Source: an uncultured bacterium
Lineage (GTDB): Bacteria > Oederibacteriota > JAAXVQ01 > JAUVAV01
Direction: 5' to 3'
DNA length: 64,000 nt
Assembly: GCA_963710755.1 (NCBI GenBank)
Contig: CAVQBK010000003.1
Coordinates: 992,001-1,056,000, forward strand
Under the pieces are notes generated by a model. The model worked only from the letters and a program-made list of their open reading frames with translations. It was not told the DNA's origin and ran no database searches. Positions within the stretch are counted from its first letter, which is position 1. Every line of letters starts with the position of its first letter. Below, in pieces: positions 13,166 to 35,087 of the stretch. The translations under genes and the position numbers were made by a program.

Positions 13166-14327
13166 ACCCATGAACATAGGACTGGTCACGGACACGTACT
13201 TCCCCCGGGTCAACGGGGTGGCAAAATCAATCCAAACCTTTGCCCAGGAATTTGAAAAGCTCGGCCACAAAGTTTATATTTTTGCACCGCAATTTCCGGA
13301 AGCCAAAGAGTCCACGGAAACTCTTTGGCGATTTCCCTCGCAGTATCTGTTCTTTAATCCTGAAGACCGGCTCCCCAATCCTTTTAAAAAGCAATCCCGT
13401 CTTTTTTTAAAAAAAGTCTCGTCTTTGCATCTCGATGTCCTTCATACCCAGACGCCTTTCGCTTTGGGTATGGCCATGGCCCGCTTGGGCAAACGCCTGG
13501 GAATTCCCACGCTGCACACGTATCACACTTTATTTGAAGCCTATATGCCGCATTATTTTCCTTTTGTGCCCAAGGCCTTGAGTATTCCATTTGCCAAAAA
13601 ACTTAGTAAAATTCTGTGTGATATGCATGATTTTATAATTGTACCGTCAACATCTATTTATGAACGGCTTCAGAGTTACGGTGTGACCAAGCCTATAAAA
13701 ATTCTGCCGACCGGCACCGATCTTTCACCCTTTAAGCAGGTTGATCATCGCCGGATGCGTCAGCAAATCGGGCTCGCTGAGGATGAACCTATGCTGCTGA
13801 CTATGGGACGGGTGGCCCATGAGAAAAATCTTCCTTTTCTATTGGATGTGTATGAAAAACTCGCGCCCCGTTTTCCCAAAGCACGTTTGGTAATTGCCGG
13901 CGTGGGACCGGCCCTGGAGAGTGTGAAGGCCGAGACCAAACGACGGAAATTGGAAAATAAGGTGATGTTCATTGGGCTGCTGTCAAAGCAGGATTGGGCT
14001 GATCTCTACGCGGCCGCGGACATTAACCTTCTGGCTTCGGTTACGGAAACCCAGGGGCTGGTGCTCACGGAAGCCATGGCCGCCGGCACGCCTTGTGTGG
14101 CAGTAGCTGCCATGGGGGTAAAAGATGTTATGGCCGGTGGCGGCGGGTTGGCTGTGAACCTGGATGTGAACGAGTTTGCCGAGGCGGTTACCAGGCTATT
14201 GACGGACAAGGCGTTGTATGCAAAAGCCTTGGAAGAAGCGGCCCAGCAGGCCATTAATTGGTCAGCTGAAACCAAAGCCGAGGAAATGCTGGAGACTTAC
14301 CAGAAACTCATTAACAGTAAAAAATAA
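13158..14327 (+). CDS. GT4 family glycosyltransferase (diacylglycerol glucosyltransferase-like)
   Basis: TDTYFPRVNGV, HTYHT, GRVAHEKN and ETQGLVLTEAMAAG. Confidence 0.9.
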   Translation: MDEPMNIGLVTDTYFPRVNGVAKSIQTFAQEFEKLGHKVYIFAPQFPEAKESTETLWRFPSQYLFFNPEDRLPNPFKKQSRLFLKKVSSLHLDVLHTQTPFALGMAMARLGKRLGIPTLHTYHTLFEAYMPHYFPFVPKALSIPFAKKLSKILCDMHDFIIVPSTSIYERLQSYGVTKPIKILPTGTDLSPFKQVDHRRMRQQIGLAEDEPMLLTMGRVAHEKNLPFLLDVYEKLAPRFPKARLVIAGVGPALESVKAETKRRKLENKVMFIGLLSKQDWADLYAAADINLLASVTETQGLVLTEAMAAGTPCVAVAAMGVKDVMAGGGGLAVNLDVNEFAEAVTRLLTDKALYAKALEEAAQQAINWSAETKAEEMLETYQKLINSKK

Positions 14328-15072: not shown

Positions 15073-16014
15073 ATGGAGCCAATGTCCGGAAGCAAGCGAT
15101 CATTTCCACTTCGTGCTGTTCTTTGGTCTTTCAAGACCTGCTTTTTTGCTGCTATGATAATGATGTTTACAGGGATAGCGGTGCCCCAACTTCTCCGGGC
15201 CATGACCATTCATACGGCTGAAGAAACAGTTGCCAAGGATATTACCCAAGCCTTCAACCAAGTTACAGTGAAAATGTTCAACGGTTATATTAAAGTAGAA
15301 GCAGTTCCCCAGAAAAACGCTACCATGACCATTGTCAAACGGGGCAGTGGTTACAGTCCTGAAGAAGCCAAAGCGGATTTAAAAAATATTGATATCCAAA
15401 TAGCGGTCAAGGCAGGCCGTCTGGAAATTATTGCCAGACGTCTGGATAACCGTCTGGATCGGCCCAATAGCGGTGCCTCTGCCTCACTTCAAGTCCCGGT
15501 GAGCACCAGCTTGCTGCTGGCTTCCAGCAACGGCGAGATTGACGCTTTGGGTCCTGTAAATGCTGTTACAGCCAGTACCTCCAACAATCCAATTCAAGTG
15601 GTCGGGGCTAAAGGTCCATTGACCCTTGAAACCAGCAATGATCCCATTAATGTCGACGGTGGCAGCGGAAAATTAGTCCTGAAAAACAGCAATGGCGAGA
15701 TCACGGTCGTTAGTCAGTCGGCTGAAGTCTTGGCCGAGACCTCCAATAGCGCCATTCGCTTTGAAGGTGGCTTATTACCAGGTACCAGTCGATTTTCAAC
15801 CAGCAATGACGACATTACCTTGGTCCTAGGAAGTAGCACGGCCTTTAGCTTGGACGGGGAAACCTCCAATGGCGAAATTCGCAGTGATTTCAAATTTCAC
15901 CACCAACCATCGCAAAACGACCAAGACGTTGTCAAAGCCCAGACCAGCGCTCATCCAGCGGTTAAAATTATCTGCCGCACCAGCAATAGTGATATTACCA
16001 TCAATAAAAAATAA
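15073..16014 (+). CDS. DUF4097-like beta-strand-repeat protein (putative adhesin)
   Basis: N-terminal hydrophobic segment and repeated [ST]SN[GDN].I units (SSNGEI, TSNNPI, TSNDPI, NSNGEI, TSNDDI, TSNGEI). Confidence 0.8.
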   Translation: MEPMSGSKRSFPLRAVLWSFKTCFFAAMIMMFTGIAVPQLLRAMTIHTAEETVAKDITQAFNQVTVKMFNGYIKVEAVPQKNATMTIVKRGSGYSPEEAKADLKNIDIQIAVKAGRLEIIARRLDNRLDRPNSGASASLQVPVSTSLLLASSNGEIDALGPVNAVTASTSNNPIQVVGAKGPLTLETSNDPINVDGGSGKLVLKNSNGEITVVSQSAEVLAETSNSAIRFEGGLLPGTSRFSTSNDDITLVLGSSTAFSLDGETSNGEIRSDFKFHHQPSQNDQDVVKAQTSAHPAVKIICRTSNSDITINKK

Positions 16015-16293: not shown

Positions 16294-19200
16294 ATGTTAT
16301 TAGGGAATACTCAGTCTTTTTGTTACAGGAGCATGGTTGTCCTTGCTACAGCTATCTGCTTTTTAATGGTTCCTTCGTTTGCCTTATCCAAAAAAAAACC
16401 TGACGTCGTAGAAATTCGGATTAAAAGCGGCGGCCGGGACCAGAAAATCCAAGAAGGATTGGATAAAACCAATCAAGGTATTGCTGCCGCCATGAGCGAC
16501 AGCGAAGAAGGAATTGAGCAAAGCAGCGGGGCAGTCAGCCGGCATGAGATCAAAGAGGAAATCAGCAAACGTTCTTCCGAGGGTTTTAGCTCTGATACTG
16601 GAAAAAAATACAAGGAAATGGGAAGCCAACTCCAACAGGAAAATGAAGCGAGAGGTACAGAACTTCGGGAAACTTATACCCGACAAGGCGACCAGCTCAG
16701 AGCTGAAAACCAAGCTCGAGGTGATGAAGTAAAAAAAGAATCTCTGGCAAAAGTACAAGAAGCGCAAGATGAAATCAATGCTGATAAAATGAAGGATGAA
16801 TATGAACAGAAGGGTGCAGGTTATGCTAACAAGGCTAAACACGATCTGGGCGAAACTCTCTGGAAAGCTCATAACAGCCTTAATGATTCGGCTAATGCTG
16901 ATAAAAGGAAATTGAATTATGTGAGCGCTGAAGCCAACTACAAAGCCGCCGACAAATTGGTTGCTATCAAAAAAAAGCTGGACAAGACGGATGTCAACGG
17001 CAGCGTTCCCAAAGATGCACAACCCGATTCAACCGTTGATTATGAATCGTCCGGCAATAACATCTTGGCGGGACAAGATTCCAGTGACAAAAAAGCCGGT
17101 AGCAACAATCAGTCTAACATAAAGAACCCGCTTTCTAATGAGGTTATAAATGAAGGCGTTGTGACGATGTTAAAACAAAGCAAAATCCAATCATATATGG
17201 AAAGCAATATGGATAAGGCCACAGCTTTGCAAAAAAATAATCCCAGCGGGGCCGGCGTGGATTCTGGGCAATTCACCCAATCTGCCGGCGGTCTGACGGA
17301 TCAGTATCAGGGTACAGGTAATAATATTGGAATGCCAGGCGTTAATGGCAATGCCGATTTGATGTCCGGCACTATGGCTCAGAGTGGCGTAAAAATCACT
17401 GAAAATGGATCCAGGCAGGGTATTGGCACTGCTGCAGCTAACGGAAATAACGGATATGGATACATGGCGGGCAGTAGCATAGACGGCACTGGCAAAGGTA
17501 GCAACTATAGTAATGTTGCTACAAGTGGTAGTGGATCGGCTAACATTGAAGGTGCCAGCCATTCTGGCAGCAGTTCGGCCAGTAATGCAAATAGTTATTC
17601 TCAAAGCTCAGAAACTTATGCTGGCAGCAAAAGTGCCGGTGCCGGTAGTGGTGTCTCGAATTCTGCAGCAGGCACGGATAAAATAAATAGTAATTATGGT
17701 GGCGGTGGGGATAGTAGTGGGTCCGGATCTTCCGCATCCGCAGAAGCGGGCAGCAACGGCCAAAATCCCCGCAGCGGCGACCAATCGGAAAAAGCTGAAT
17801 CGCCAAGCGCCAGTAAGACAAGTGCCAAGCAACAGGGCAATTCTGGTAAACCCCAAAATGTTGCTGCAAACAGCAGTGTAGGAAACAAGCAGACTGTCAA
17901 AGGCCAGCCAGTTAATAACCCGTCTTCCAGCAAAAAAAATGCCAACGCCAACTCTTTGGCCCACGCTTACAAGCCTAAAACGGGTGGCACCAAGACTGCG
18001 GGTATTGTGGTCAATAGTGTGGATTATCATAGTACAGCAATTAATGCTGCCGTAGGCGAGAATGCAACATCGAATTTGGGGTCCATCGTTTTTAAAGGCA
18101 GTGAAATCAACGGCGTTGTTGTTAATAGCGATCAGGACGGCAATAATCGCATTAATGCTGCCGTGGGCGCCGCAACAGCCGCAAACCAAAGCAGTGTGGT
18201 TACTCGAAACAGCAAAATCAAGGGTGCAGTTGTCAACGCGGTGAGGGGACAAAACATGGTCAATGCGGCGGTGGGCGTAAACGCAGAAGCCAATCAAGGA
18301 TCTGTAGCTGTCAAAGAAAGCCAGGTCAACGGTGTCTTGATAAACTCATCCAGTAGTCAAACCCAGGTTAATGCGGCCATTGGCGAAAATGTTACCGCTA
18401 ATCAATCCGCAGTCCAAATACGATCCAGCCAAATGTCGGGTGCAGCGGTGAACGTGCAGAAAAGCCAGAACGCTATCAACGCAGCCATTGGAAACGATGC
18501 GCACAGTAACCAAGCCAGCACCCATTTAAAGAACAGTAAACTCGAAGGTGTGGCTGTTAATGCGGCCACAGGGAATAATCATATCAATGCAGGAATTGGT
18601 GCCGATGTTAAAGCCAATCAAACGTCCACGCATATGGAAAACAGCACCCTGCAAGGTGTGGCGGTCAATGGCGCTGCTGGTACCAATCTTACCAACGTGG
18701 GGATTGGGGGAAACGTGAAGGCCAACCAAGCGTCCACGCATATGGAAAACAGCACCCTGCAAGGTGTGGCGGTCAATGGCGCTGCTGGTACCAATCTTAC
18801 CAACGTGGGGATTGGGGAAAACGTGAAGGCCAACCAAGCGTCCACGCATATGGAAAACAGCACCCTGCAAGGTGTGGCGGTCAATGGTGCTGCCGGTGCT
18901 AATCTCACCAACGTGGGGATTGGGGAAAACGCGAAAGCCAACCAAGCAGCCACGCACATGGAAAACAGCCGGCTGCAAGGTGCTGCCATAAATATTGCCG
19001 GTGGTGCAGCGGCGACCAATGTTGGGATCGGTGAAAATGTAAAAGCCAACCAAGCGTCCACGCATATGGAAAACAGCCGGCTGCAAGGTGCTGCCATAAA
19101 TATTGCCGGTGGTGCAGCGGCGACCAATGTTGGGATCGGTGAAAATGTAAAAGCCAACCAAGCGTCCACGCATATGGAAAACAGCACCCTGCAAGGTGTA

Positions 19201-20733
19201 GCTGTTAATGGTGGTGCCGGAGCCTATCTCACCAACGTGGGCATAGGTTCGAATGTGAAAGCCAACCAAGCATCCACACACATGAAAAACAGTCGGCTGC
19301 AAGGTACTGCCGTAAATATTGTCGGCGGCGCAGCTGCTACCAACGTGGGGATTGGGGAAAACGTGAAAGCCAATCAAGCGTCCACGCATATGGAAAATAG
19401 CACCCTGCAGGGTGCTGCAGTGAATACTGCTGGTGGCGCGGTGGTAACCAACGTAGGAATCGGTGAAAACGTGAAAGCCAGTCAAGGCTCAACTCATATG
19501 GAAAACAGCCGGCTGCAAGGCGCGGCCGTGAATATCGCTGGTGGTGCGGCCACCACCAATGTAGGGATTGGAGAAAATGTGAAAGCCAGTCAAGGTTCAA
19601 CTCATATGGAAAACAGCCGGCTGCAAGGCGCGGCCGTGAATATCGCCGCCGGCGTGGCAGTGACCAATGTTGGTATTGGCCAAAACGTTAAAACCAATCA
19701 AGGCGCTACAAGTCTGGAAAATAGCCGGATGCACGGAGCCGCAGTTAACCTTGTCGGGGGAGCTGGTGCTACCAATGTAGGTATCGGTGAGAATGTCAAA
19801 GCTAACCAGGCATCAGTGAGTGCAAAAAACAGTCATTTGAACGGCATGGCGGTAAATGCCGGTGTGGGTGGGCTTCTTACCAATATTGGTATTGGTAAGA
19901 ATGTCAAAGCCAATCAGGCGTCTGTACGCGCCGTCAATAGTTCGGTCAAAGGCTCGGTGATAAATGCTACTGCTGCTGGGTTGGCTACCAATGTGGCTAT
20001 TGGGGAGAACGCCACCTCCAATCAGACATCCGTGCACACAGAAGGCAGTCATATGCAGGGTGAAGTTAAAAATACAGCCGTTGCTGGGGCTGCTACCAAT
20101 ATTGCCATTGGTAAAAATGTTAAGGCCAATCAGGCGGCCGTGCACTTGAAAAATAGTAATCTCAAAGGTAACGTGAATAATAATGCTGGCGGTGGTTTAA
20201 TGACCAACGTGGCTATTGGCGAGGGTGCCACAGCCAACCAAGCGGCCGTGGATATGGAGAACAGCACCTTAAAAGGTAATGTTTCTAATAATATTTCCGG
20301 TGTTGCAGGTACCAATATTGCTCTCGGCGGCAACGGAACCAAGGCCAATCAATCTGCGGTGGTTATGAAAAATAGCCAATTGGAAGGCGACGTTAATAAT
20401 AATGTGAGCAGCATTGGCACGAATTTAGCACTTTCCGGGGGACGTGCCAATCAGGGAACGGTTTATATGGAAAAAGCCAGTTACCGCGGAAATATTACCA
20501 ACAACGTTTCAGGTATGACAGCGACCAATTTGGCAGTGGGTAATAATGCCGAAGCGAATTCCGCATCTGTGGTGATTAAAAATCGCTCCGGTGGAGGTGG
20601 ACTTCACACTGGTTCTGGTGCGGGAATTGTGATAAACGACATTAAGGTTCCTGGCGGTAGCTTGACGGGGCAGAATTTAAATGTACAGGCGGGAAAAGGG
20701 ACTTCAAATAAAAATTCTGTGGTATTCAAATGA
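16294..20733 (+). CDS. Large secreted repeat protein with helical N-terminus, Ser/Gly/Asn linker and about 24 x 36-aa beta-repeats (candidate fibre/adhesin subunit)
   Basis: GGAGG RBS before ATG 16294 (the ORF track starts at 16186). Signal-like segment VVLATAICFLMVPSFALS. Repeat consensus TNVGIGENVKANQASTHMENSTLQGVAVNGAAGTNL. Confidence 0.85.
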   Translation: MLLGNTQSFCYRSMVVLATAICFLMVPSFALSKKKPDVVEIRIKSGGRDQKIQEGLDKTNQGIAAAMSDSEEGIEQSSGAVSRHEIKEEISKRSSEGFSSDTGKKYKEMGSQLQQENEARGTELRETYTRQGDQLRAENQARGDEVKKESLAKVQEAQDEINADKMKDEYEQKGAGYANKAKHDLGETLWKAHNSLNDSANADKRKLNYVSAEANYKAADKLVAIKKKLDKTDVNGSVPKDAQPDSTVDYESSGNNILAGQDSSDKKAGSNNQSNIKNPLSNEVINEGVVTMLKQSKIQSYMESNMDKATALQKNNPSGAGVDSGQFTQSAGGLTDQYQGTGNNIGMPGVNGNADLMSGTMAQSGVKITENGSRQGIGTAAANGNNGYGYMAGSSIDGTGKGSNYSNVATSGSGSANIEGASHSGSSSASNANSYSQSSETYAGSKSAGAGSGVSNSAAGTDKINSNYGGGGDSSGSGSSASAEAGSNGQNPRSGDQSEKAESPSASKTSAKQQGNSGKPQNVAANSSVGNKQTVKGQPVNNPSSSKKNANANSLAHAYKPKTGGTKTAGIVVNSVDYHSTAINAAVGENATSNLGSIVFKGSEINGVVVNSDQDGNNRINAAVGAATAANQSSVVTRNSKIKGAVVNAVRGQNMVNAAVGVNAEANQGSVAVKESQVNGVLINSSSSQTQVNAAIGENVTANQSAVQIRSSQMSGAAVNVQKSQNAINAAIGNDAHSNQASTHLKNSKLEGVAVNAATGNNHINAGIGADVKANQTSTHMENSTLQGVAVNGAAGTNLTNVGIGGNVKANQASTHMENSTLQGVAVNGAAGTNLTNVGIGENVKANQASTHMENSTLQGVAVNGAAGANLTNVGIGENAKANQAATHMENSRLQGAAINIAGGAAATNVGIGENVKANQASTHMENSRLQGAAINIAGGAAATNVGIGENVKANQASTHMENSTLQGVAVNGGAGAYLTNVGIGSNVKANQASTHMKNSRLQGTAVNIVGGAAATNVGIGENVKANQASTHMENSTLQGAAVNTAGGAVVTNVGIGENVKASQGSTHMENSRLQGAAVNIAGGAATTNVGIGENVKASQGSTHMENSRLQGAAVNIAAGVAVTNVGIGQNVKTNQGATSLENSRMHGAAVNLVGGAGATNVGIGENVKANQASVSAKNSHLNGMAVNAGVGGLLTNIGIGKNVKANQASVRAVNSSVKGSVINATAAGLATNVAIGENATSNQTSVHTEGSHMQGEVKNTAVAGAATNIAIGKNVKANQAAVHLKNSNLKGNVNNNAGGGLMTNVAIGEGATANQAAVDMENSTLKGNVSNNISGVAGTNIALGGNGTKANQSAVVMKNSQLEGDVNNNVSSIGTNLALSGGRANQGTVYMEKASYRGNITNNVSGMTATNLAVGNNAEANSASVVIKNRSGGGGLHTGSGAGIVINDIKVPGGSLTGQNLNVQAGKGTSNKNSVVFK
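18619..19650 (+). repeat. 108-bp coding tandem repeat, about 9-10 highly similar copies
   Basis: The core CA[CT]ATGGAAAACAGC..CTGCAAGG recurs every 108 nt (units starting near 18619, 18727, 18835 and onward). Confidence 0.95.
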
Positions 20734-20960
20734 GCTTATGTACAAACAGGGCGTCTTTCCTTTGCTCTAAGGCCAGGCTGTTGGCATGAGCATTAAGTGG
20801 CCTCTCAATTTATTTTACCAGAGGCAATAAAGATCTGAGCGCTAGCAAAATATTTTTTTAAACAGACAATCTAACGTGGGAGGTGAACAGAACCATAGAA
20901 AGGGATTTTTTAGAAATTAGGCTTAATGAAAAAACATTCTTAAAAAAATGAGGAGGAATT

Positions 20961-21707
20961 ATGAAGAAAATCAGTTTATTTATCGCAATGTTATCTTTGT
21001 TAGCCATGCAAGCCTATGCTGCATCCAGCTCACAGGTGGGCGGTGAGATGAGCAATGAATCAAAAATTGGTAAAAATGCTATTAATGCCGCGGTCGGCGA
21101 CGGGTCCAAAGCAAATATGGGTTCTATTAAGTTTTCCGGCACAACCACGGAAAAAGGAAGCAGTGTTAAAAACAGCTCCAATATCGAAGGTGGGGCTATC
21201 AACGCCTCGGTTGGAGAAAACACCACTGCCAACATGGGCTCGATCAGCATGAAGAATACCAAAATTCAAGGTACAGTGAATAATTCAGCTAACGTCACCA
21301 AAGGTTCAATTAACGCTGCAGTGGGCAAGAATTCCAAAGCCACCATGTCCAGCATTGAGATCGAGGGCGGAGGCGTGGGAAAAACCGGCACAGTAAATAA
21401 TGCAGCAGTTATGAAAGGTAAGCAAATCAATGCCGCAGTGGGCGATGGCTCTAGTGCCAGTATGGGTAGTGTTTCCCTTAAGAATAGTCAAGTGAATGGC
21501 GAAATTAATAATACCGCTAATATCACAGGCGGTATTAATGCCGCGGTGGGTGATCACTCGAAAGCCACCATGGGTTCTGTGGATATAGCGAATACGAATG
21601 TCACATCAGGCGCCACCGTTAACAACAGCGCCAGTATTGACAACGGCATCAATGCTTCGGTAGGAAGGAACACCGAAGCGAATATGGGCTCGATTTCGGG
21701 AGAATAG
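20961..21707 (+). CDS. Secreted 248-aa protein made of six INA[AS]VG..A.MGS[IV] repeats (candidate major fibre/amyloid subunit)
   Basis: Strong GAGGAGG RBS and Sec signal MKKISLFIAMLSLLAMQAYA. The mature part is almost entirely 36-39-aa N/S/G-rich repeats with no Cys, Trp or Pro. Confidence 0.85.
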   Translation: MKKISLFIAMLSLLAMQAYAASSSQVGGEMSNESKIGKNAINAAVGDGSKANMGSIKFSGTTTEKGSSVKNSSNIEGGAINASVGENTTANMGSISMKNTKIQGTVNNSANVTKGSINAAVGKNSKATMSSIEIEGGGVGKTGTVNNAAVMKGKQINAAVGDGSSASMGSVSLKNSQVNGEINNTANITGGINAAVGDHSKATMGSVDIANTNVTSGATVNNSASIDNGINASVGRNTEANMGSISGE

Positions 21708-21720: not shown

Positions 21721-21756
21721 TTCCCCGGGCCGGGTAGGAATGTACGGCCCGGGGAA
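21721..21756 (+). promoter_or_regulatory. 12-bp GC-rich stem-loop after the 248-aa gene (mRNA stabiliser or weak terminator)
   Basis: TTCCCCGGGCCG / CGGCCCGGGGAA perfect inverted repeat with no U-tract. Confidence 0.65.
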
Positions 21757-21847
21757 AATATATAGGGGTGAAGTTGTTCGAATTCTGGGTTTATGGGTTC
21801 AAGCATTGAGGTCAGCAGAGAGTGTGCTGGCAGATTGGATGAAGATA

Positions 21848-22198
21848 ATGCGAAAGCTCGCCATTTTTTTATTTGCTGGTATTGCCTATTGTATTATATT
21901 ACCCGCCTTTGTTGTATGGGGAAATGATTTAGATGATGGGATTTCCACCTATACCGATGAATCTATTGGGGCGGATGATGATTTAGGTAGTAGTGCCAAC
22001 AATATCAATTTTATTGTAGTAGATGCCGTTGGAAAAGCCAAAACAAGAAAAAGTGCTGATGCCAAAGACAAGGGCAACGACGCCCAAAAAAACGTCACCA
22101 ATGTTTATGATGGGCAGTCGGACAACAACGAAAACAGTGTGGTGGTGGAAGCAGGGAGCAAGGTGGACAAGGTTTATAATATTGTCATTGAAAAATAG
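21848..22198 (+). CDS. Small secreted acidic protein
   Basis: Likely start MRKLAIFLFAG (or 21839). A signal-like segment is followed by NDLDDGIS..DDDLG and C-terminal NNENSVVV..VYNIVIEK. Confidence 0.75.
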   Translation: MRKLAIFLFAGIAYCIILPAFVVWGNDLDDGISTYTDESIGADDDLGSSANNINFIVVDAVGKAKTRKSADAKDKGNDAQKNVTNVYDGQSDNNENSVVVEAGSKVDKVYNIVIEK

Positions 22199-22240: not shown

Positions 22241-23386
22241 ATGATAGTGAGTGCCAAGATGAAGGTCCCTCGGAAAACAAGCGTTCTTACATTTCAATCA
22301 CTGATGATTGTTGGGTTGAGTTTGCTGCAATTGGCTTGCTCCTCTTTGGACCCACGGCAGGTGGATATGGAGCTTAAAGAGACCAAGCCGTTCACAACGA
22401 TTACCAACTACACCCAATCCCTGCACAATCTGGGGTTGATGACGGAAATCTATGGCACTCCCAACATGAAGATTCAGTGCCAGCCAGTGGGAGACAATAC
22501 CGGGTCCTCCATGGCCACTGGCGGCGAAATTCCTCGCGATATTACGGAGATGATGAAAAGTGCCCTTAATTCTATCGGCGGCCGGACTGTGTATATTCCC
22601 TATGATCCTTCTTTTATCCAGAACCAAATGGTCACCGGGTACTCCAATTTTTCCAATAAAGTCATTCCCGACGTGGTACTCACCGGAGGGATTACCGAAT
22701 TTGACCGCGGCTTGGAAACGCGTGGTACCAACACCGATGCAAGTGCTGACGCAGAATTTAAAGGCTTACCCGCGGACTTTCCCTCCGCCGCTACGGGAAT
22801 TCGCTACAGCAGTGCTGACAAATATGGGGTGGCCCGTATAACTCTGGATTTTAATCTTCTCGATTTTCAAACCATGACCGGGTTGTCGCGTATGAATACG
22901 GTCAATTCTATGGAAGTCAGGAAAGTACTGGCAGACCGGGAATTGGGCATCAGCTTATTTGGTCAGTCTTTTGGCGGTAAAGGCAGTATTAAAAAAGTCC
23001 AGGGACGGCATGCGGCTGTCAGGGTACTGGTGGAACTGAGCATGATTGAGTTGGTAGGTAAACATCTCATGCTTCCTTACTGGCGTCTTTTAGGTAATGA
23101 TGCTACACCCGACCGCGTCGTGCTGGACAGCATTGACAATTACTTTTACAATTTAACCAATACCGGTGTGACGGCCAGCGTCCAGGAATGGTTATATCTC
23201 TATGGCTATAATGTGGCTCTGACCGGCGTTTTAGATAAAGCCACGCTGGCAGCCCTGAAAAAAGTTTATCCTGATTATAACGCCAATTTAGGGACTATTG
23301 ATCTGCAGACCTTTCGCTATGTGTATCTGAACATCCCGATTGATTTGAGTGCCAAAAGAAGGCGAAGACAGTTTGATACCCTGTAA
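22241..23386 (+). CDS. CsgG/HfaB-like lipoprotein with C-terminal peptidoglycan-binding domain
   Basis: Lipobox-like LQLAC. DVVLTGGITEFD and RITLDFNLLDFQT resemble the CsgG/HfaB core. VQEWLYLYGY...GVLDKATLAALK resembles PG_binding_1. Start uncertain. Confidence 0.75.
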   Translation: MIVSAKMKVPRKTSVLTFQSLMIVGLSLLQLACSSLDPRQVDMELKETKPFTTITNYTQSLHNLGLMTEIYGTPNMKIQCQPVGDNTGSSMATGGEIPRDITEMMKSALNSIGGRTVYIPYDPSFIQNQMVTGYSNFSNKVIPDVVLTGGITEFDRGLETRGTNTDASADAEFKGLPADFPSAATGIRYSSADKYGVARITLDFNLLDFQTMTGLSRMNTVNSMEVRKVLADRELGISLFGQSFGGKGSIKKVQGRHAAVRVLVELSMIELVGKHLMLPYWRLLGNDATPDRVVLDSIDNYFYNLTNTGVTASVQEWLYLYGYNVALTGVLDKATLAALKKVYPDYNANLGTIDLQTFRYVYLNIPIDLSAKRRRRQFDTL

Positions 23387-23415: not shown

Positions 23416-23994
23416 ATGAAGAAATATATCCTAACAGCATTCATAATCATGGTTTTATCCACGGCTGGTTACGCAGCCAATCGTATGGCTAAGAAGCATC
23501 TGGCGCTGGGTGATCGTTTATTTCAACAGCACCGCGTTGAAGAGGCGATTCAGGAATGGCAAATTGCTCTGGATCTGGACAAAAAGCTAGTGATTGCCAA
23601 GGAAAACATTGAGGCTGCCCGGTATTATCAAAAGCACGGCGAAATGCCTGTCAAAAAAGAACCAGAAGTGATTCAAACCGATGTGGATAATTTACCGGGA
23701 GCGGAAAAACCCATTGTGAAACCTCAACCCAAAGTTCCCGTGGATCGAATTAAAACTGAGATTTTACAAATTGAAAAAAACGGAGGACGGGCCACCAAAA
23801 TCTTAATCAATGCTGGCACGGCCAATGGCGTGGGGGTGGGCATGGAAGGTATTGTAGTAGAGCTCAATGGCGCCCCCCTGGCGGCTTTCCGGGTCACTGC
23901 TGCCGATACGGATAAAAGCTTGGCTGACATTATTTCCCTCAATCGGGATGTGAGCAATACAGCTGTTGCCATCGTGGACCGGCCCAGGGAGTAA
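23416..23994 (+). CDS. Secreted TPR protein with FlgT C-terminal-like domain
   Basis: Signal MKKYILTAFIIMVLSTAGYA, TPR HLALGDRLFQQHRVEEAIQEWQIALDLD, a Pro/Lys linker, and ILINAGTANGVGVGM. Confidence 0.7.
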   Translation: MKKYILTAFIIMVLSTAGYAANRMAKKHLALGDRLFQQHRVEEAIQEWQIALDLDKKLVIAKENIEAARYYQKHGEMPVKKEPEVIQTDVDNLPGAEKPIVKPQPKVPVDRIKTEILQIEKNGGRATKILINAGTANGVGVGMEGIVVELNGAPLAAFRVTAADTDKSLADIISLNRDVSNTAVAIVDRPRE

Positions 23995-24052
23995 GTTGTT
24001 TAAAACGAAAATATTTTGACGATGTATTTCGCGTTTACCAGCTTTATACGTG

Positions 24053-24090
24053 GGCCTGCCTTTTCCAGAAAGGCTGGCCTTTTTTATTTT
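24053..24090 (+). terminator. Intrinsic terminator closing the repeat-protein cluster
   Basis: GGCCTGCCTTT-TCCAG-AAAGGCTGGCC followed by TTTTTTATTTT. Confidence 0.75.
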
Positions 24091-24183: not shown

Positions 24184-24217
24184 CTCGTCCTTGTATGAAT
24201 AAGACGTGGAGACAACC

Positions 24218-27200
24218 ATGAGCTGTGATGTACGCTTGGAGTCTATTGCCCTAACCCCTCTGTTAAAAAATGTCCTTGAAAACCTGGAAATCGCCGATCA
24301 TATGAAAAAACACGTACTCAGTGCCCAAGCATCCTCTGTGACGGTCACCACCAAGCCCCCAACTATTTTGATCCAATTATTATCCAATCATGCCATTGAA
24401 AAGCCTGCTCTGGAAGCTTTATCCCAGTCCTTAAGTGAAACGTGGGACCAACCATCCCCCCCCCGCATCGTTTGGGATTTGCATTACCCCAATGGTCAGG
24501 TCTCGGCCCTTGCCTATCTGCAGGAACATTGGCAGGATTTGTTGGTGGTTTTTTCCAAGGAAGTCAATATGGCCGCGGCTTATCTGTCTCTGGTACGGTT
24601 TCAAGCTCTGGAAGAAGGGAAAATTAAAATCGCCCTGGCTAATAAAATGAGTTTGGCGGCTTTGAAAAAGCAAGAAGGGGACAAAAAGATCAGTCGGTTG
24701 TTGAGTGAGCGGTTGCAGCGCGAAATTCAGGTGAAATTTGAACTGGGCAATTTCGAAGAAGAAGTCAAACACCGCGAAGCTTTATATGAACAGCGCATTC
24801 GGGAAGAGTTGGAAAGGATGCAGCAAGAAAAAGATCTGGGGCCACAATCTGACGGCCAGGATCGGCCTCATGGAGGCAAACCACAAAAAGCAGCCTGGAA
24901 GCTGGTTTTTGGCAGAAGCATCGCCGGCCAGCCACGTCCTATCAAAGAGATCAACGAAGAAGAAAAAAATGTTGTTTTTGAGGGGGAATTGGTAGCTTTT
25001 GAAAAAAAGGTGTTGCGCACCGGACGGCAGCTGGTACTGATGGATATTTATGATAAAACCAGCAGTATTAATGCGCGCATGTTTGTGGATGCAGAGCAAC
25101 AGGTTTCGTCTGAGATTAAATGCGGCGCCTATGTACGAATTAAAGGATCCGTTCAGACAGATAAATATTCTCAAGATTTATGCATGATGGTCAATAGTGT
25201 GATGGTTGGAGAAAAAGAGCGGCGCCATGATCTTATGGCAGCCCAGGATAAACGGGTGGAGTTGCATGCCCATTCGCAAATGAGTGCCATGGATGCTTTA
25301 CCGGAAGTCAAACAGCTGGTGGCCAAAGCTGCGGAATTCGGCCATCCCGCTGTGGCCATCACGGATCATGGTGTGGTGCAGGGGTTTCCTGAGGCTATGG
25401 CTGCTGCTTCAGCCCATGGACTTAAAGTGATCTATGGGGTGGAAAGCTATTTGATCGAGGATGAATGGCTCAAAGATAAAAAACCCAAACGGCCTTATCA
25501 TATTGTTATTTTAGTCAAAGAATTCAAGGGGTTACGCAATCTCTACCGTTTGACCTCGGAAGCGCATCTCAAGTACTTTTATCGTCATCCTCGTATTCCC
25601 CGCTCCTTGCTGGAAAAATACCGGGAAGGGCTGATTTTTGGAACTGCCTGCGAACAAGGGGAGTTATACCGGCGCCTGTTGGAAGGGGCCAATGACCAGG
25701 AGCTGGCGGTTATTGCCGGCCGCTATGATTATGTGGAAATTATGCCTAATGGCAACAATCAGTTCCTTATCCGCAATGGTGTGGTCAAGGATGATCTGGA
25801 ACTTCAGGCCATTAATAAACGGCTTGTGGCCATCGCCCAAAGTCAGGGCCGCCCGGTGGTGGCCACGGGGGATGTTCACTTTCTGGAACCAGGTGATGAA
25901 ATTTTCCGATGTATTTTGCAAGCCGGCCAGGGCTATGATGATGCAGCGCAACAAGCTCCCCTTTATTTCCACACCACCGAAGAAATGCTAAAAGAATTCG
26001 ATTATCTGGGTGAACCCTTAGCCAAAGAGGTTGTGATCCAAGGTCCGCAAAAGGTAGCCGGATGGATTGAAAAAATTGAACCTCTAAAACTGGATTTTTA
26101 CCCGCCCAAACTACCTGACGCGGAAGCCAAATTGGAAAAAATGGCCCTCAGCCGGGCCCATGAAATCTACGGCACACCCTTGCCTGAAGTGGTGGACCAA
26201 CGGTTAAAACGGGAAATTACGGCTATCAACCACAATAAATTTGCCAGTTTATTTCTCATAGCCCGTGAACTGGTGCAAAAATCGCTGGCCGACGGTTATC
26301 TGGTAGGTTCGCGCGGATCGGTCGGGTCCTCCTTAACTGCGACCATGCTGGGGATTACCGAGGTCAATCCGCTGCCCGGGCATTACTTATGCACCAGCTG
26401 TCGTCATGTGGCTTGGGATGTGGAAGGCCGTATGGGCGCCGATTTACCGGATGAACAATGTCCGGTTTGTGGCCTGGTCATGAGCAAGCAAGGCATGGAC
26501 ATTCCCTTTGAAGTCTTCATGGGCTTTAAAGGGGATAAAACACCCGACATTGACTTGAATTTTTCCGGAGAATACCAAAGCCGGGCTCATAAATTTTTAG
26601 AAGAATTGTTTGATGCTGATCACATTTTCAGGGCAGGCACTATCTCGACGGTGGCCGATCGGACGGCTTATGGGTTTGTAAAAAAGTATTTGGATGACAA
26701 CAAACTGGTATTGCGTGAAGCTGAGATCAATCGTTTGACCCGGGGATGTGCGGGTGTCAAAAAAACTACCGGTCAGCATCCAGGCGGCATCATGATTGTA
26801 CCTGCCGATATGTCGATTTATGATTTTACGCCTGTGCAGCGACCTGCGGACGATAAAAATTCCGACGTCGTGACCACACATTTGGACTATCACGCCATCC
26901 ACGATGCCTTACTTAAATTGGATGTGCTCGGCCACGATGATCCTACCTCCCTACGCCGGCTGGGGGACTGGACCGGAGTGGATGTCAGATCCATTCCTTT
27001 GGATGATCCGGAAACATTAAAGATATTTTCCGGTCTGGACTCTTTGGGCCTTTCAGAAGCAGACATCCACACTGGGATCGGCACTCTGGGCATTCCCGAA
27101 TTTGGAACGGAATTCGTAAGACAGATGTTGGATATCACCAAGCCCAAGGCCTTTTCTGAATTAGTACGCATCTCCGGCCTGTCGCACGGCACCGATGTAT

Positions 27201-27967
27201 GGCTTAATAATGCTGCTGATCTTATTAAGGCCGGTACAGCTACCCTTTCCACGGTTATTTCAGCCCGTGATGACATTATGAATTACCTTATTTCCAAAGA
27301 TTTGGAACCATCCTTGGCTTTCAAAATAATGGAATCCGTTCGCAAAGGTAAGGGGCTGACGCCGGAGTGGGAAACAGCCATGAAAAACCATAAAGTACCC
27401 GAGTGGTACATCGAATCCTGTAATAAGATTAAATACATGTTTCCCAAGGCCCATGCGGTGGCTTATTGCATTATGGCCTTCAGGATAGCTTATTTTAAAG
27501 TACATTTCCCAACTGCTTTTTATGCCAATTACTTTTCTTTAAATGCGGAATCCTTCGATGCCCAACTGGTGGTTTTTGGAGGGTTGCAGGGGGTTAATAA
27601 TAAATTAAAGGAACTTAAAGGCCGCCAGGATTTGACGGCCAAGGATAAAAATGCTCAGACCGTACTGGAAGTTGTCCGGGAAGCCTTTGCCCGGGGCATT
27701 GAATTTAAACCGGTGAACATGGCCATCTCCGCGGCCGAAACCTTCAAGATCCTGGGGGACAAGCAAATTATCCCACCTCTGATATCCTTAAACGGCCTGG
27801 GTCTGACGTGCGCCAAAAAAATTGTCCAGGAAAGGGAGCTCAGGCTTTTCCGGTCAGTGGAGGATTTGAGCAAGCGTACGGGAGCCAATAAAAACGTCAT
27901 CGAAATCATGACTCAGCATGGATGCTTGACCGTATTGCCGGCCAGCGATCAAACGTCGTTGTTTTAA
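24218..27967 (+). CDS. polC: DNA polymerase III, PolC-type, without embedded exonuclease
   Basis: OB fold precedes the PHP domain (RVELHAH, AITDHG, TGDVH). Also GSRGSVGSS, a Cys4 Zn finger, PDIDLNFSG, KLDVLGHDDPT, KIKYMFPKAHA and a C-terminal clamp motif QTSLF. Start is ATG 24218 (GGAGA RBS) or GTG 24206. Confidence 0.97.
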   Translation: MSCDVRLESIALTPLLKNVLENLEIADHMKKHVLSAQASSVTVTTKPPTILIQLLSNHAIEKPALEALSQSLSETWDQPSPPRIVWDLHYPNGQVSALAYLQEHWQDLLVVFSKEVNMAAAYLSLVRFQALEEGKIKIALANKMSLAALKKQEGDKKISRLLSERLQREIQVKFELGNFEEEVKHREALYEQRIREELERMQQEKDLGPQSDGQDRPHGGKPQKAAWKLVFGRSIAGQPRPIKEINEEEKNVVFEGELVAFEKKVLRTGRQLVLMDIYDKTSSINARMFVDAEQQVSSEIKCGAYVRIKGSVQTDKYSQDLCMMVNSVMVGEKERRHDLMAAQDKRVELHAHSQMSAMDALPEVKQLVAKAAEFGHPAVAITDHGVVQGFPEAMAAASAHGLKVIYGVESYLIEDEWLKDKKPKRPYHIVILVKEFKGLRNLYRLTSEAHLKYFYRHPRIPRSLLEKYREGLIFGTACEQGELYRRLLEGANDQELAVIAGRYDYVEIMPNGNNQFLIRNGVVKDDLELQAINKRLVAIAQSQGRPVVATGDVHFLEPGDEIFRCILQAGQGYDDAAQQAPLYFHTTEEMLKEFDYLGEPLAKEVVIQGPQKVAGWIEKIEPLKLDFYPPKLPDAEAKLEKMALSRAHEIYGTPLPEVVDQRLKREITAINHNKFASLFLIARELVQKSLADGYLVGSRGSVGSSLTATMLGITEVNPLPGHYLCTSCRHVAWDVEGRMGADLPDEQCPVCGLVMSKQGMDIPFEVFMGFKGDKTPDIDLNFSGEYQSRAHKFLEELFDADHIFRAGTISTVADRTAYGFVKKYLDDNKLVLREAEINRLTRGCAGVKKTTGQHPGGIMIVPADMSIYDFTPVQRPADDKNSDVVTTHLDYHAIHDALLKLDVLGHDDPTSLRRLGDWTGVDVRSIPLDDPETLKIFSGLDSLGLSEADIHTGIGTLGIPEFGTEFVRQMLDITKPKAFSELVRISGLSHGTDVWLNNAADLIKAGTATLSTVISARDDIMNYLISKDLEPSLAFKIMESVRKGKGLTPEWETAMKNHKVPEWYIESCNKIKYMFPKAHAVAYCIMAFRIAYFKVHFPTAFYANYFSLNAESFDAQLVVFGGLQGVNNKLKELKGRQDLTAKDKNAQTVLEVVREAFARGIEFKPVNMAISAAETFKILGDKQIIPPLISLNGLGLTCAKKIVQERELRLFRSVEDLSKRTGANKNVIEIMTQHGCLTVLPASDQTSLF

Positions 27968-27988
27968 TGGTCACGGTCTTGTTCGAGA

Positions 27989-28918
27989 TCAGCCTACCAG
28001 TCGTATTTCCGGTTCCAGCCAAACCCCTTTTTGCGTCTGCACTTCCTGTTGCATATGGTGCATGACAGCTTCCACGTCCGTAGCCGTGGCGCTGTTCCAG
28101 TTAATAATAAAATTGGCATGATGCTCAAAAACCCGGGCACCACCCGCGCTGTAGCCTTTGAGGCCGCAGTCTTCTAGTAACTGGCCTGAAGGCATGCTGT
28201 GCGCATGGTCGTTTTTAAAGACGCAGCCGGCAGAAGGCCAATCAAATTGATGCTTACTGGTACGGTCACGAAGATGAAGGTCACTCTGGGTCTTGACATG
28301 TTCAGGATCTTCAGGCCTCAGCTGCAAAACCGCTTCCACGATAGTCCACGGTTGGGTCTGGAATAGGGAATGTTTATAGGCAAACTGACACTCGCCCCGG
28401 GTGAGTGTTTTTATTTTGCCCGCACTGTCCAGGGCTGTCACTTGTTCAGTTATATCGGCAAAAGAGGATCCGTAGCAGCGGGCATTCATGAAAAGCCCCC
28501 CACCGACGAAGCCGGGCAGGCCACAGGCCCACTCAAAGCCGCCAAGACCAGTTTGTATGGTGAAGGCGGTCAGGGCAGCCACCGGTAAACCAGCACCTAC
28601 TTTGACACGATGATTTTCCAATAATTCCAGGTGATCCAACCGGGAGGTACTAAGTACCAGTCCCTGAAATCCTGGGTCGCGAAAGAGCACATTGCTTCCG
28701 CCTCCCAAAATAAAAGTGGCCAATTTCAAATCATGGGCTGCCTGCAACAACGCCTGTAGGTCGGCTAATGAGTCCGGGGCAGCAAAAGCTGCGGCCGGTC
28801 CGCCGCATTTAAAGGTGACCAAGCCGGCCGTGGGGTAATCCATCAGCACAGGAGTAGTTCCGGCTAGGTTCTGTAGGTCAGAGAGTTGATCCTTCAAGAT
28901 GACATCCGATCTTACCAT
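27989..28918 (-). CDS. murB: UDP-N-acetylenolpyruvoylglucosamine reductase
   Basis: GGGSNVL, PGFVGGGLFMNA, PSAGCVFKN, HANFIIN and LEPEI. Confidence 0.95.
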   Translation of the reverse strand: MVRSDVILKDQLSDLQNLAGTTPVLMDYPTAGLVTFKCGGPAAAFAAPDSLADLQALLQAAHDLKLATFILGGGSNVLFRDPGFQGLVLSTSRLDHLELLENHRVKVGAGLPVAALTAFTIQTGLGGFEWACGLPGFVGGGLFMNARCYGSSFADITEQVTALDSAGKIKTLTRGECQFAYKHSLFQTQPWTIVEAVLQLRPEDPEHVKTQSDLHLRDRTSKHQFDWPSAGCVFKNDHAHSMPSGQLLEDCGLKGYSAGGARVFEHHANFIINWNSATATDVEAVMHHMQQEVQTQKGVWLEPEIRLVG

Positions 28919-29148
28919 TGGGAAGACAATCGTCCTCCGTAACAGTTAAAAATGGGTTATCCGTTTTAAAAAGTCCACTTGGGCAGGGCTGGGCAATTTC
29001 CTACCTTTTTCTATAGCAATCACGCACATTTTTTCCGGCGTTTGACCACACCATCCGGGATTGATAGGATGATAGTAAACTCCGATAGGGTTTGGCAACA
29101 AAAAAACAGATGGCGCACAGAGGCCGGCTTGGGCTTCATATTTTTTGC

Positions 29149-29177
29149 TTGACTTGAAGCAGAAACAGCCCTATTCT
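29149..29177 (+). promoter_or_regulatory. Sigma70 promoter of nusA-infB operon
   Basis: TTGACT-17 nt-TATTCT. Confidence 0.7.
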
Positions 29178-29203
29178 ACTGCCTTAAGTTGAGTCTTTGC
29201 GCG

Positions 29204-29239
29204 AAAGAGTGGGACGACTAGGCCCACTCTTTTTATTTT
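29204..29239 (+). promoter_or_regulatory. rimP-leader-like terminator/attenuator hairpin
   Basis: AAAGAGTGGG-ACGACTAGG-CCCACTCTTTTTATTTT, matching the GAGTGGG/CCCACTC hairpin commonly found ahead of rimP-nusA-infB. Confidence 0.75.
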
Positions 29240-29353
29240 AGGCCCCCAAAGGAACGCTGCCTTGTCGGCGAAACTTGGGGGCAACACGCATGGGCTTCAG
29301 CCTGAGCATGGTGATGTCAGCCAATGTGCTTGCATAAAAAAAAGGTGATGACT

Positions 29354-30877
29354 ATGAACTTTGAAATTGTAGAAGTAATGCGTCAGATTGAACGTTCCCG
29401 CAAGGTAGAACGGCATGTATTGATTGAAGCTATTGAAGCAGCCTTGATTTCAGCCTCCCGTAAAAATTACGGCGCTGCCCAGGATATCCGGGTGGAATTT
29501 AATGAAGCTACCGGTGAACTGGTGGCCCATGTGCGCAAGGAAGTAGTGGAAGATGTGCAGGAAACCTGGCACCAAATAGCTTTGGAGGAAGCCCAACGCC
29601 TGAATCCCCAGGTTCAGCTGGGAGATATTGTGGAACAAACCATGTCGCCTTCTGATTTCGGGCGCATTGCTGCTCAAACCGCCAAACAGGTGGTACTGCA
29701 GCGGGTTCGGGAATCGGAACGCAATGCCAATTATGAAGAATTCAAGAAGCGCCTAGGAGAATTAATCAACGGGTCGGTTATCAGGATCGAGCATAAAAAT
29801 GTCATCATCGACCTGGGAGAAACGGAAGCCATTCTTCCAGCCCGGGAACAAGCGCCCAAGGAATATTACCAAAGCGGCGATCGCATTAAGGCCTATGTAT
29901 TGGATGTTCGCCGCAGCAACCGTGCCCCCCAGGTAATCCTGTCACGCAGCCATCCCGGATTGATTAAAAAAATGTTTGAAATGGAAGTCCCGGAAGTTGC
30001 CGAAGGCGTGGTGGAAATCAAGGGTGTAGCTAGGGAAGCCGGCTCGCGTTCCAAGGTCATGGTTTACAGCAGTGATAAAAATGTTGATCCTGTGGGTGCT
30101 TGCGTGGGTATCAAGGGATCACGCATCCAATCCATAGTGCGCGAGATTCGCGGAGAAAAAATCGACGTTATTCCGTTTTCTGAAGATATTACCACTTTGC
30201 TAAAAGCAGCCCTGCAGCCGGCTAAAATACAAAACGTGGAAATGATAATGGACAAAAAACAAGCCACGGTGGTGGTCAAGGAAGACCAATTGTCCTTAGC
30301 CATTGGAAAAAACGGGCAGAATGTACGCCTGGCCTCCAAACTTACGGGCTGGAAAATAGATATTGTCAGTGATACCCAGAATCAGGAACAAATGCGGCGC
30401 AAGGCCGAAGAAGCTTTTATTCAAGCGGCGCCACCATTAAATAAAATTAAAGGCATCAGTGAGAAACTGGCTGCTGTGCTGGGTGAAGCGGGCTATGGCA
30501 CCGTGGCCCAGCTCCAGGGCATCACGGCCGAGCAATTGGCCGAGCTGCCAGGAATTGGTTTGAAAACAGCCGAGAAAATATTGGCGGCCGTTAGCAGCTA
30601 TCTGCCCACCAAGGAAACACCCAAAACGGAACGTACGGCCGAGGAATTGTTTGCCAGTTGGGGAAAACCGGAAGCCGAGGGCAAAGTTGATGAAAAAGTG
30701 GTTCGTGCCCGGGATTTATTTTCCGGGTTGGACCAGTTAAAGGAAGAAGAACAGGAAAGCAAGGAGAATGCTGATCAGATCCAGTCAGAGGAGGACAAGC
30801 CAGCCATCGCGGAAGCACCATCAGAAGAGGATCTAAACGAGGGGTCTGCATCAGAGGAAGAAGGTGAAAGTGAATGA
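29354..30877 (+). CDS. nusA: Transcription factor NusA with HhH and acidic C-terminal extension
   Basis: FGRIAAQTAKQV, AREAGSRSK, DPVGACVG and LAIGKNGQNVRLA. Start set at MNFEI after an AAGGTG RBS. Confidence 0.98.
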   Translation: MNFEIVEVMRQIERSRKVERHVLIEAIEAALISASRKNYGAAQDIRVEFNEATGELVAHVRKEVVEDVQETWHQIALEEAQRLNPQVQLGDIVEQTMSPSDFGRIAAQTAKQVVLQRVRESERNANYEEFKKRLGELINGSVIRIEHKNVIIDLGETEAILPAREQAPKEYYQSGDRIKAYVLDVRRSNRAPQVILSRSHPGLIKKMFEMEVPEVAEGVVEIKGVAREAGSRSKVMVYSSDKNVDPVGACVGIKGSRIQSIVREIRGEKIDVIPFSEDITTLLKAALQPAKIQNVEMIMDKKQATVVVKEDQLSLAIGKNGQNVRLASKLTGWKIDIVSDTQNQEQMRRKAEEAFIQAAPPLNKIKGISEKLAAVLGEAGYGTVAQLQGITAEQLAELPGIGLKTAEKILAAVSSYLPTKETPKTERTAEELFASWGKPEAEGKVDEKVVRARDLFSGLDQLKEEEQESKENADQIQSEEDKPAIAEAPSEEDLNEGSASEEEGESE

Positions 30878-35085: not shown

Positions 35086-35087
35086 TC

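Follow-up and report, generated by a model that had tools for sequence, protein, structure and literature searches.

Curli subunits stack head-to-tail through their terminal repeats as described in PMC10192328, which gives the curlin repeat a length of 23 ± 5 residues; its minimal form is stated as X6-Q-X-G-X2-N-X10 in PMC3521004. The curli channel CsgG is reported as a nonameric 36-stranded barrel (PMC4389571). The cargo of most CsgG-family channels is not known: PMC3521004 counts 171 curli genes among 601 Pfam CsgG hits, and an Acinetobacter CsgG cluster is described as carrying no curli subunit (10.1101/2021.05.19.444899). CsgG-family proteins exist outside fibre systems too. The Fap subunit is presented as having three repeats joined by linkers (PMC12392863, PMC12822426), and a GTDB screen is reported to have detected operons of both the curli and the Fap type in Desulfobacterota and Nitrospirota (PMC12822426). 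The holdfast anchor of the Caulobacterales (HfaA, HfaB, HfaD and HfaE) employs a CsgG-family lipoprotein to export non-curlin subunits, and HfaA and HfaD are described as forming SDS-resistant complexes that depend on HfaB (10.1101/2022.07.20.500906).

Here, we analyse a stretch of 64,000 nucleotides from an uncultured bacterium (the window) in which five genes, B, A, S, G and T, follow one another in that order on one strand. The original prediction, made from the sequence of the window, took A for an uncapped, all-repeat major subunit of a fibre. In our assessment, A probably acts as the major subunit in a surface fibre; this fibre would be exported via G and would grow head-to-tail. The evidence comprises the repeat anatomy, the terminal register, the genomic linkage and an RNA hairpin, all of which are read from the sequences, together with the predicted folds of A and G. 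The cassette likely works like curli, with CsgG-type export and an open-ended subunit, but appears to lie outside the curlin, Fap and Hfa families. No description of a B-A-S-G cassette was found in the full-text literature that was searched, most subscription papers lying outside that search.

Sequence and repeat anatomy of A

Gene A (20961..21707, forward strand) is a single frame of 248 amino acids that ends in TAG and encodes an all-repeat protein, the candidate major fibre subunit; the sequence AGGAGG at 20951..20956 (forward strand) constitutes its ribosome-binding site. Residues 1–20 (20961..21020) form a likely Sec signal peptide ending in A-Y-A, as assigned by eye from the −3/−1 rule, and residues 1–18 have a pLDDT of under 50 in the model described below. 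Six contiguous repeats (21021..21704) follow, consisting of residues 21–59, 60–98, 99–135, 136–174, 175–210 and 211–248, with lengths of 39, 39, 37, 39, 36 and 38 residues, respectively, and they tile residues 21–248 with no remainder. Each repeat presumably corresponds to one coil of the predicted β-solenoid. If cleaved after residue 20, mature A contains 228 residues, including 32 Asn, 34 Gly and no Tyr; as had been predicted, it also contains no Pro, Cys or Trp. Gln is scarce in the repeat (3%), in contrast to curlin and Fap.

The original prediction quoted the repeat as six 16-residue segments, all of which occur letter for letter in the 20961–21707 frame, each preceded by the predicted [VIM].N.[AS].[IVM] strand (MSNESKI, VKNSSNI, VNNSANV, VNNAAVM, INNTANI and VNNSASI). 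The 16-residue motif is therefore present, but the real unit is the whole of 36–39 residues. The repeats extend to the very C-terminus in the sense that the units tile to residue 248, although SGE trails the last quoted motif, and the MGS signature is found in the repeats generally, but the third reads MSS. The motif N[AVIL][AGS][VIL]GxxxxAxM, derived from the A sequence itself, occurs six times in A compared with a maximum of once in 100,000 shuffles; a motif-free identity autocorrelation peaks with a value of 0.30 at lag 76, compared with 0.21 for the best of 1,000 shuffles. Family scans placed A, B, S and G in no Pfam or NCBIfam family over the cut-off, a PDB sequence search with A returned no match and all Atlas leads for A are below 0.9.

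The repeat family

A word-index homologue search with A produced one match among 2,707 candidates. This yield is an artefact because the repeat is divergent; the full search with a repeat HMM, which had been proposed together with the original prediction, recovered a family of 204 clusters (50% identity) at E ≤ 0.001, 70 of them at 1e-10. Some of the weak rows among the 204 may be compositional. The number of repeat matches per protein ranges from 2 to 28, and the family autocorrelation is 0.64 at lag 36 and 0.06–0.08 at lags 22–24.

The family unit, obtained from sets of 192 and 344 cut units, is 36 residues in length, with N-V-A-I-G-x-G-A/N/S-x-A-N-M-G-S-V-x-M/I-x at positions 1–18 and x-S-x-V-K-G-x-V-x-N-x-S/A-x-V-x-x-A/S-A at positions 19–36. 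Two Asn and two Gly columns (N1, G5, G24 and N28) are invariant, bearing out the fixed Asn and Gly positions that had been anticipated; the patterns used for cutting force N1 in the 192-unit set and N1, G24 and N28 in the 344-unit set, and in a plain unfiltered alignment the four positions are 90–100% conserved. The strand formed by positions 35–5 displays small residues on one face and aliphatic residues on the opposite face, suggesting that both sides are buried.

For the alignment, 46 short homologues were chosen from ∼70 short repeat genes, with the exclusion of sequences with X runs, frameshifted halves, B fragments, very short fragments and six complete genes of more than 321 residues. 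The 150 cluster representatives constitute a separate set, in which 25 proteins have 88–104 residues, most of them consisting of a signal peptide and just two repeats; two coils are likely to be too few for folding alone.

The repeats are also found fused to other domains. Of 19 fusion candidates scanned, 11 carry FecR-like domains (P0153, P0165, P0174, P0179, P0180, P0202, P0203, P0214, P0215, P0222 and P0228) with the repeats C-terminal, and those inspected end in the register of A. The repeats are fused N-terminally to subtilases in two of the 19 (P0131 and P0170) and to a CsgG-like piece in one (P0185); a lipase-like domain occurs in P0259. These fusions are possible fibre cargo or a sensing module.

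Terminal register

The C-terminus is located 18 residues after the last anchor Asn in all 46 aligned short homologues, and the six complete genes of more than 321 residues, which are outside this set, share the same ending. Among the 150 representatives, 50 have no anchor by the pattern; of the other 100, 57 terminate at offset 18, with every other offset used by four at most. At the N-terminus, a −3/−1 cleavage site (scored as Ala or Gly at −1 and a small residue at −3) falls exactly before position 19 in 32 of the 42 homologues in which the N-terminus is present, compared with 24 of 42 for an offset of −2 and at most 13 for the remaining offsets. In four of the ten misses the pattern had picked a later repeat. 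The A protein of the window has two extra N-terminal residues relative to this register if it is cut after A-Y-A; this slight offset and the variation of its repeats between 36 and 39 residues count against stacking. Both ends are constant although the repeat number varies from 2 to 28.

Because its first residue occupies position 19 and its last residue position 18, the mature chain contains a whole number of coils at any repeat number, so that copies would join without a gap or an overlap. This two-ended register is required for seamless stacking and is not required of a monomer, and thus fits head-to-tail growth. The FecR-like fusions that end in the register of A are likewise consistent with joining onto a polymer.

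Predicted structure of A

The AF2 model of A, calculated from 46 sequences, has a pLDDT of 91.8 and a pTM of 0.86. Strands extend from residue 24 to residue 247, with four or five strands per repeat. A is predicted to be an uncapped all-β solenoid with no helix or added domain, rather than a capped or globular protein, in agreement with the original prediction.

A Foldseek search of the PDB with the model gave nothing at E ≤ 0.001. The best structural matches from VIA-align are parallel β-helices, with Z scores of 11.4 and lower in a flat list without a leader; such a list and the lack of a Foldseek match do not establish a new fold. Matches include Vag8 (Z = 11.4, r.m.s.d. of 4.2 for 167 aligned residues), the antifreeze protein 3p4g (Z = 11.4, 2.5 for 113), the bactofilin BacA (Z = 9.7, 2.4 Å for 94 residues), a Thermus thermophilus bactofilin (Z = 8.6, 1.9 Å for 82 residues) and the CsgA fibril 8enq (Z = 7.7, 8.5 for 108). 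Six-coil β-helices align across the whole length of A. The 94 residues aligned with BacA span model residues 21–225, which would fit one repeat per coil. Bactofilins and parallel β-helices share the six-coil geometry and open ends of the A model; A differs in having about twice the residues per coil and a signal peptide, and shows no sequence match to bactofilins.

The candidate channel G

Gene G (22241..23386, forward strand) encodes a 381-residue lipoprotein with a predicted CsgG/HfaB-type fold and a helical C-terminal domain. Searches yielded 864 relatives among 5,065 candidates, with proteins named from Desulfuromonas thiophila and Geomonas sp. Red276 among them, and an alignment of 96 proteins (the window protein, 73 of 120 listed matches and 22 from the loci described below) shows Cys33 to be invariant (96/96). 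Weak matches (E ≤ 0.05) to Pfam CsgG (PF03783) and PG_binding_1 were obtained for 30 and 41 of the 96, respectively, and a weak match to HfaB for 22 of the 96, the best relative having an E value of 8e-5. The G protein of the window has no Pfam CsgG hit and no match in a PDB sequence search, and matches the NCBIfam HfaB model with an E value of 0.006 (15.8 bits against a cut-off of 300). The G profile aligns with Escherichia coli CsgG over 184 columns (E = 5e-4), and the Atlas neighbours of G are clusters with CsgG plus PG_binding_1 (0.92).

The G model (pLDDT of 86.5) contains two long β-hairpins (residues 145–208 and 214–253). The ten best PDB matches from Foldseek are all CsgG (best E = 1.3e-10, probability 1.0, 12–14% identity), with modest TM-scores of 0.31–0.34 by query length and 0.46–0.59 by target; HpaA, FlgT and PelC follow well behind (E ≃ 0.003–0.008). 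As judged from profile and model, G is a distant CsgG relative with a CsgG-type fold, and its C-terminal helical domain probably binds peptidoglycan. The host genome contains three Omp85 genes, from which it follows that the host has an outer membrane.

The partner genes B, S and T

Gene B (16294..20733, forward strand) encodes 1479 residues from an ATG located behind GGAGG, in a frame that is open from 16186. The protein consists of a likely signal peptide, a low-complexity N-terminal region of ∼580 residues, ∼24 repeats of 36 residues, mostly with NQ where the A family has NM, and a conserved C-terminal module that ends in N-K-N-S-V-V-F-K. B is a candidate minor or nucleator subunit. Its middle repeats are nearly identical in DNA (window 18600–19700, with the same 14-mer at 18645, 18753, 18861 and 19185), a sign of recent repeat expansion.

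Gene S (21839..22198, forward strand; start at 21839 or 21848) encodes an exported acidic protein of ∼120 residues with a conserved DLDDGIS start and a C-terminal strand, N-x-N-S-V-V, which is invariant and also closes B. This common strand is a lead that S might seed the fibre, and S is a candidate adaptor between channel and fibre. The last 45 residues of S bear a faint resemblance to half a repeat (E = 0.05; 4.9 bits, compared with 1.5 for the reversed sequence). Homology to CsgF was rejected on sequence (profile against E. coli CsgF, E = 0.08, probability 0.7%), and none of 43 S proteins matches PF10614 or PF10627, the CsgF and CsgE models.

Gene T (23416..23994, forward strand) encodes an exported TPR protein with a C-terminal domain of ∼85 residues (G-G-x-V ... 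N-x-G ... G-I-x-V-G-x-x-G) and is a lineage-specific accessory. The C-terminal domain, for which a PDB search returned no match, recurs in the gene that follows G at the loci of relatives (L016:12067-13353, L017:4705-6171, L018:11488-12780 and L020:5192-6493); the N-terminal part of this gene encodes a TPR in two relatives, as in the window, and a PorV-like barrel elsewhere. Behind the cassette, the relatives' loci L022:4121-7763 and L019:5198-8056 contain PorV-like genes and encode proteins whose C-terminal sorting domains are type IX-like.

The hairpin after A

A GC-rich RNA hairpin of 12 pairs (21721..21756, forward strand) begins 13 nt past the A stop codon, with no U run behind it. Its free energy is −29.2 kcal/mol (z = −4.0), and none of 200 shuffles was as good. 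With dinucleotide shuffles, z < −2 was obtained in the 60 bases past the stop for 43 of 53 A-type genes, compared with two of 20 B, two of 49 S and three of 62 G genes (7/131 neighbour genes overall); the S control partly reads coding DNA because many S–G gaps are short. The stems vary in sequence across taxa, and a U-rich tail is found in 13 of the 53. A hairpin past a gene is no proof of higher expression; its conservation after A fits a major subunit, and it likely raises the A message over the S and G messages. Together with the terminal register, it provides an indirect sign in the sequences that supports a head-to-tail major subunit.

A terminator-like hairpin after T (24058..24074, forward strand; z = −2.8 for 23995–24080) is likely to be the operon end. 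It was located by a consensus scan that found 15 sites compared with 11.2 expected and is hence weak alone. A promoter scan was uninformative (18 sites, compared with 12.6 expected).

Conservation and linkage across genomes

A search for A over 61 related genomes found it in six, including the host. In the relatives, A, S and G occur together in eight of nine stretches, the ninth of which stops inside a B-like gene, and the B-A-S-G order is kept wherever the contigs reach. Of 99 genomes from the host phylum, the same six contain both the A and G profiles and 93 contain neither; the six are kin and do not count as independent events. In species genomes, a scan for G gave 64 loci with 51–89% identity from Desulfuromonadaceae, Desulfobacterales, Desulfobulbales, Nitrospirota, FCPU426, Sulfurospirillaceae and others, three of them duplicating other loci of the analysis.

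With a repeat HMM built solely from nine A sequences and B, a repeat gene was detected in 54 of the 64 loci, a figure that becomes 43 of 45 once only loci with 2.5 kb or more upstream are counted; these loci are kin. Of the ten loci without one, eight have less than 2 kb upstream and one (L083) is cut 36 bases downstream; L064 has 5.6 kb upstream and 8.9 kb downstream of G with no repeat gene and is a real exception within that stretch. S is present in 49 of the 64 loci in BLAST searches with the window protein; clustering places it at 65 of 72 G loci. An A-type gene is present in 52 of the 64 and a B-type C-terminus in 20, B never occurring without A. B is found in 15 of the 33 loci with at least 4 kb upstream of A, and L049 adds a variant ending that was missed by the pattern. 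Since B is seen in part of the loci, A-S-G forms the core, with B being optional or located elsewhere.

In the host genome (98% complete) the repeat HMM finds A and B only, and no curlin was detected, with the E. coli control giving a signal. Loci outside the window lineage add genes for an LPP20-like protein, a 99-residue protein, a 125-residue protein and a GIN-domain protein (55, 41, 37 and 27 of 73 loci, respectively), of which the 99- and 125-residue proteins are exported. Profiles for these four partners found none in the host genome; the window lineage instead carries T or a PorV-like gene with a T-type C-terminal domain.

Comparison with curli, Fap and holdfast anchors

The cassette shares several features with curli (type VIII secretion): a CsgG-fold lipoprotein channel in the operon (at the level of the predicted fold), exported all-repeat subunits of variable repeat number predicted to be open-ended β-solenoids, two adjacent repeat proteins of which one is short, and a small exported partner gene (S) beside the channel gene. 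As had been proposed, the subunit itself is not curlin, with the kernel, repeat length and profile comparisons all failing. The A repeat spans 36–39 residues, compared with the 23 ± 5 of curlin, and lacks the Q-x-G-x-x-N kernel. The X6-Q-X-G-X2-N-X10 pattern occurs neither in A nor in B and twice in 81 family proteins with 703 repeat matches; Q-x4-N-x5-Q has no match in family proteins. Pfam PF07012 (curlin) gives no hit for A and is not among the 25 families listed for the 46 homologues, and the A-family profile aligns with E. coli CsgA with an hhalign E value of 0.47. None of CsgE, CsgC, CsgD and CsgH was hit among the five cassette genes. In addition, A lacks a long unstructured targeting segment ahead of the first repeat, and G is 100 residues longer than CsgG, with a C-terminal helical domain.

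As in the A family, the Fap repeat is ∼37 residues in length, is Asn/Gly-rich and has several short strands per layer, and a local N-x-A-x-G-x-G look-alike of nine columns is present. The Fap amyloid of Pseudomonas (subunits FapC and FapB, protease FapD) differs in its channel, FapF as opposed to a CsgG-type G, and in its three linker-separated repeats, compared with contiguous repeats of free number. The Fap reference set comprised 72 proteins with the published motif from metagenomes, from 80 of at least 120 loci and picked by motif alone. Kinship was not supported: 99 Fap-motif repeats aligned with 153 family units over nine columns (probability 7%), and the best cross-HMM scores of 3.0 and 1.6 bits are matched by 2.4 and 0.5 bits for reversed controls. 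GN-x-G-x-N and NQQxN are absent, NQQxN having no occurrence in 81 family proteins. With respect to the Greek-key cross-section of Fap, the A model aligned with FapC (9u4u) with an E value of 0.21 and a TM-score of 0.08, an alignment hindered by the out-of-chain-order layers of FapC, and FapC is not among the best 50 VIA-align rows. The likeness to FapC drawn in the original prediction survives as an analogy with a nine-residue look-alike and does not extend to kinship. The comparison with curlin and Fap HMMs suggested there was carried out, with no match to curlin and Fap scores equal to those of the reversed controls.

The cassette resembles the holdfast anchor in pairing a CsgG-family lipoprotein with non-curlin subunits. 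It is found in other phyla with no linked holdfast genes seen, and G is far under the HfaB cut-off. A separate candidate, the pentapeptide-repeat fold, was rejected (autocorrelation of 0.09 at lags 5 and 20, no tandem motifs, TM-scores of 0.10–0.15); pentapeptide HMM hits in 22 of the 46 homologues and weak PDB hits are read as compositional, and A has none.

Proposed mechanism and alternative explanations

In the mechanism that we propose, A, B and S would cross the inner membrane by Sec, and G would oligomerize in the outer membrane, with its two hairpins contributing to a β-barrel and its C-terminal domain tying the channel to peptidoglycan. Unfolded A would pass through the channel and then fold with one repeat per coil, giving ∼6 × 4.8 Å, or 29 Å per subunit. 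With a mature chain that runs from repeat position 19 through to position 18, the first coil of each A would extend the last coil of the A before it. S may anchor the fibre base to the channel in the manner of CsgF, a parallel drawn from position rather than sequence, and B would be an optional long minor subunit or nucleator. The hairpin could protect the A mRNA or damp read-through, leading to an excess of A over S and G.

A, B and S might instead form a short finite surface anchor at G, as HfaA and HfaD do at HfaB, tethering a polysaccharide or matrix polymer rather than building long fibres. We consider this unlikely. HfaB is the sole NCBIfam match of note for G (in the window and in 22 of the 96 relatives), one Atlas lead for A (0.77) points to a cluster that is 70% PF27277 HfaD, and the SDS-resistant HfaA/HfaD complexes described above offer a precedent; yet the HfaA and HfaD NCBIfam models match none of the 46 homologues and the Atlas score, with its low recognition (1307), is below 0.9. 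Across 73 loci, the neighbouring genes show no recurrent polysaccharide family, and a high-copy polymer would account for the strict two-ended register and for the hairpin better than a fixed anchor. A monomeric or small-oligomeric secreted β-solenoid, such as an adhesin or an ice- or mineral-binding protein with polar, non-stacking open ends, appears very improbable. Monomeric adhesins and an antifreeze protein (Vag8 and 3p4g) do head the structural matches, and the fusions to FecR-like and subtilase domains indicate that the repeats are possible in non-subunit proteins. In a monomer, however, nothing would require the two ends to share a register, many members consist of a signal peptide and two repeats, likely too few coils to stand alone, and the inspected FecR-like fusions end in the register of A, which fits joining onto a polymer.

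The least probable of the alternatives, by a slight degree, is that A polymerizes in the periplasm as a non-amyloid, bactofilin-like scaffold tied to the wall by G, with G being a structural ring and not an exporter. Bactofilins are among the nearest geometric matches (BacA and the T. thermophilus protein), PG_binding_1 occurs in 41 of the 96 G relatives, and FlgT, HpaA and PelC, which do not export fibres, share part of the CsgG fold. Nevertheless, the bactofilin rows do not rise above generic β-helices, the G model retains two long hairpins and its score with CsgG is seven orders of magnitude above those with FlgT and HpaA. Bactofilins are cytoplasmic and are not known to carry signal peptides, which also counts against this arrangement.

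The exported head-to-tail fibre remains our preferred reading. More tentatively, the cassette could stand next to curli and Fap as a third large class of secreted bacterial fibres, with a CsgG-fold channel, an unrelated amyloid-like subunit of 36-residue repeats and an exact head-to-tail register, common in sulfur- and metal-cycling anaerobes and with FecR-like and protease domains plugged in via fused repeats; we regard this broader view as possible, short of probable. For one widespread clade of CsgG-family channels, the family provides a defined candidate cargo that is not curlin, and a 228-residue protein opens the question of orphan CsgG export to direct test. Should A polymerize, Desulfobacterota, Nitrospirota and other anaerobes would have in it a matrix fibre, none of that kind having been found in the literature searched; members with 2–28 repeats and natural enzyme fusions would offer a regular, programmable protein material, and G a new nanopore scaffold.

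Genomic surroundings

The cassette lies between housekeeping genes, those upstream (window 7903–14327) being presumably RseP-, IspG- and ProS-like. A DUF4097 (Toastrack) gene is located just upstream of B (15073–16014) and does not recur among the conserved cassette neighbours. In other loci an ECF-type sigma factor gene, absent from the window locus, lies directly upstream of B (L020:11162-11821, L017:13745-14485 and L021:10558-11208; two assigned by Pfam and the third by eye). A second, unrelated CsgG-domain gene that is over the Pfam cut-off is present in the host genome (C3:969406-969747), ∼39 kb upstream of B and outside the window. One genome (G014) contains three copies of the cassette (L017, L018, L019 and L024), the third of which looks split between the ends of contigs C10 and C15. 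An S–G pair on a 2.4 kb low-coverage contig assigned to an archaeon (L074) is likely to be a binning error. Downstream of the cassette (24206–35981) are genes that we take to encode a PolC-type polymerase, MurB, NusA, IF-2, RbfA and a TruB-like protein; a PolC-type polymerase is uncommon in a bacterium with an outer membrane.
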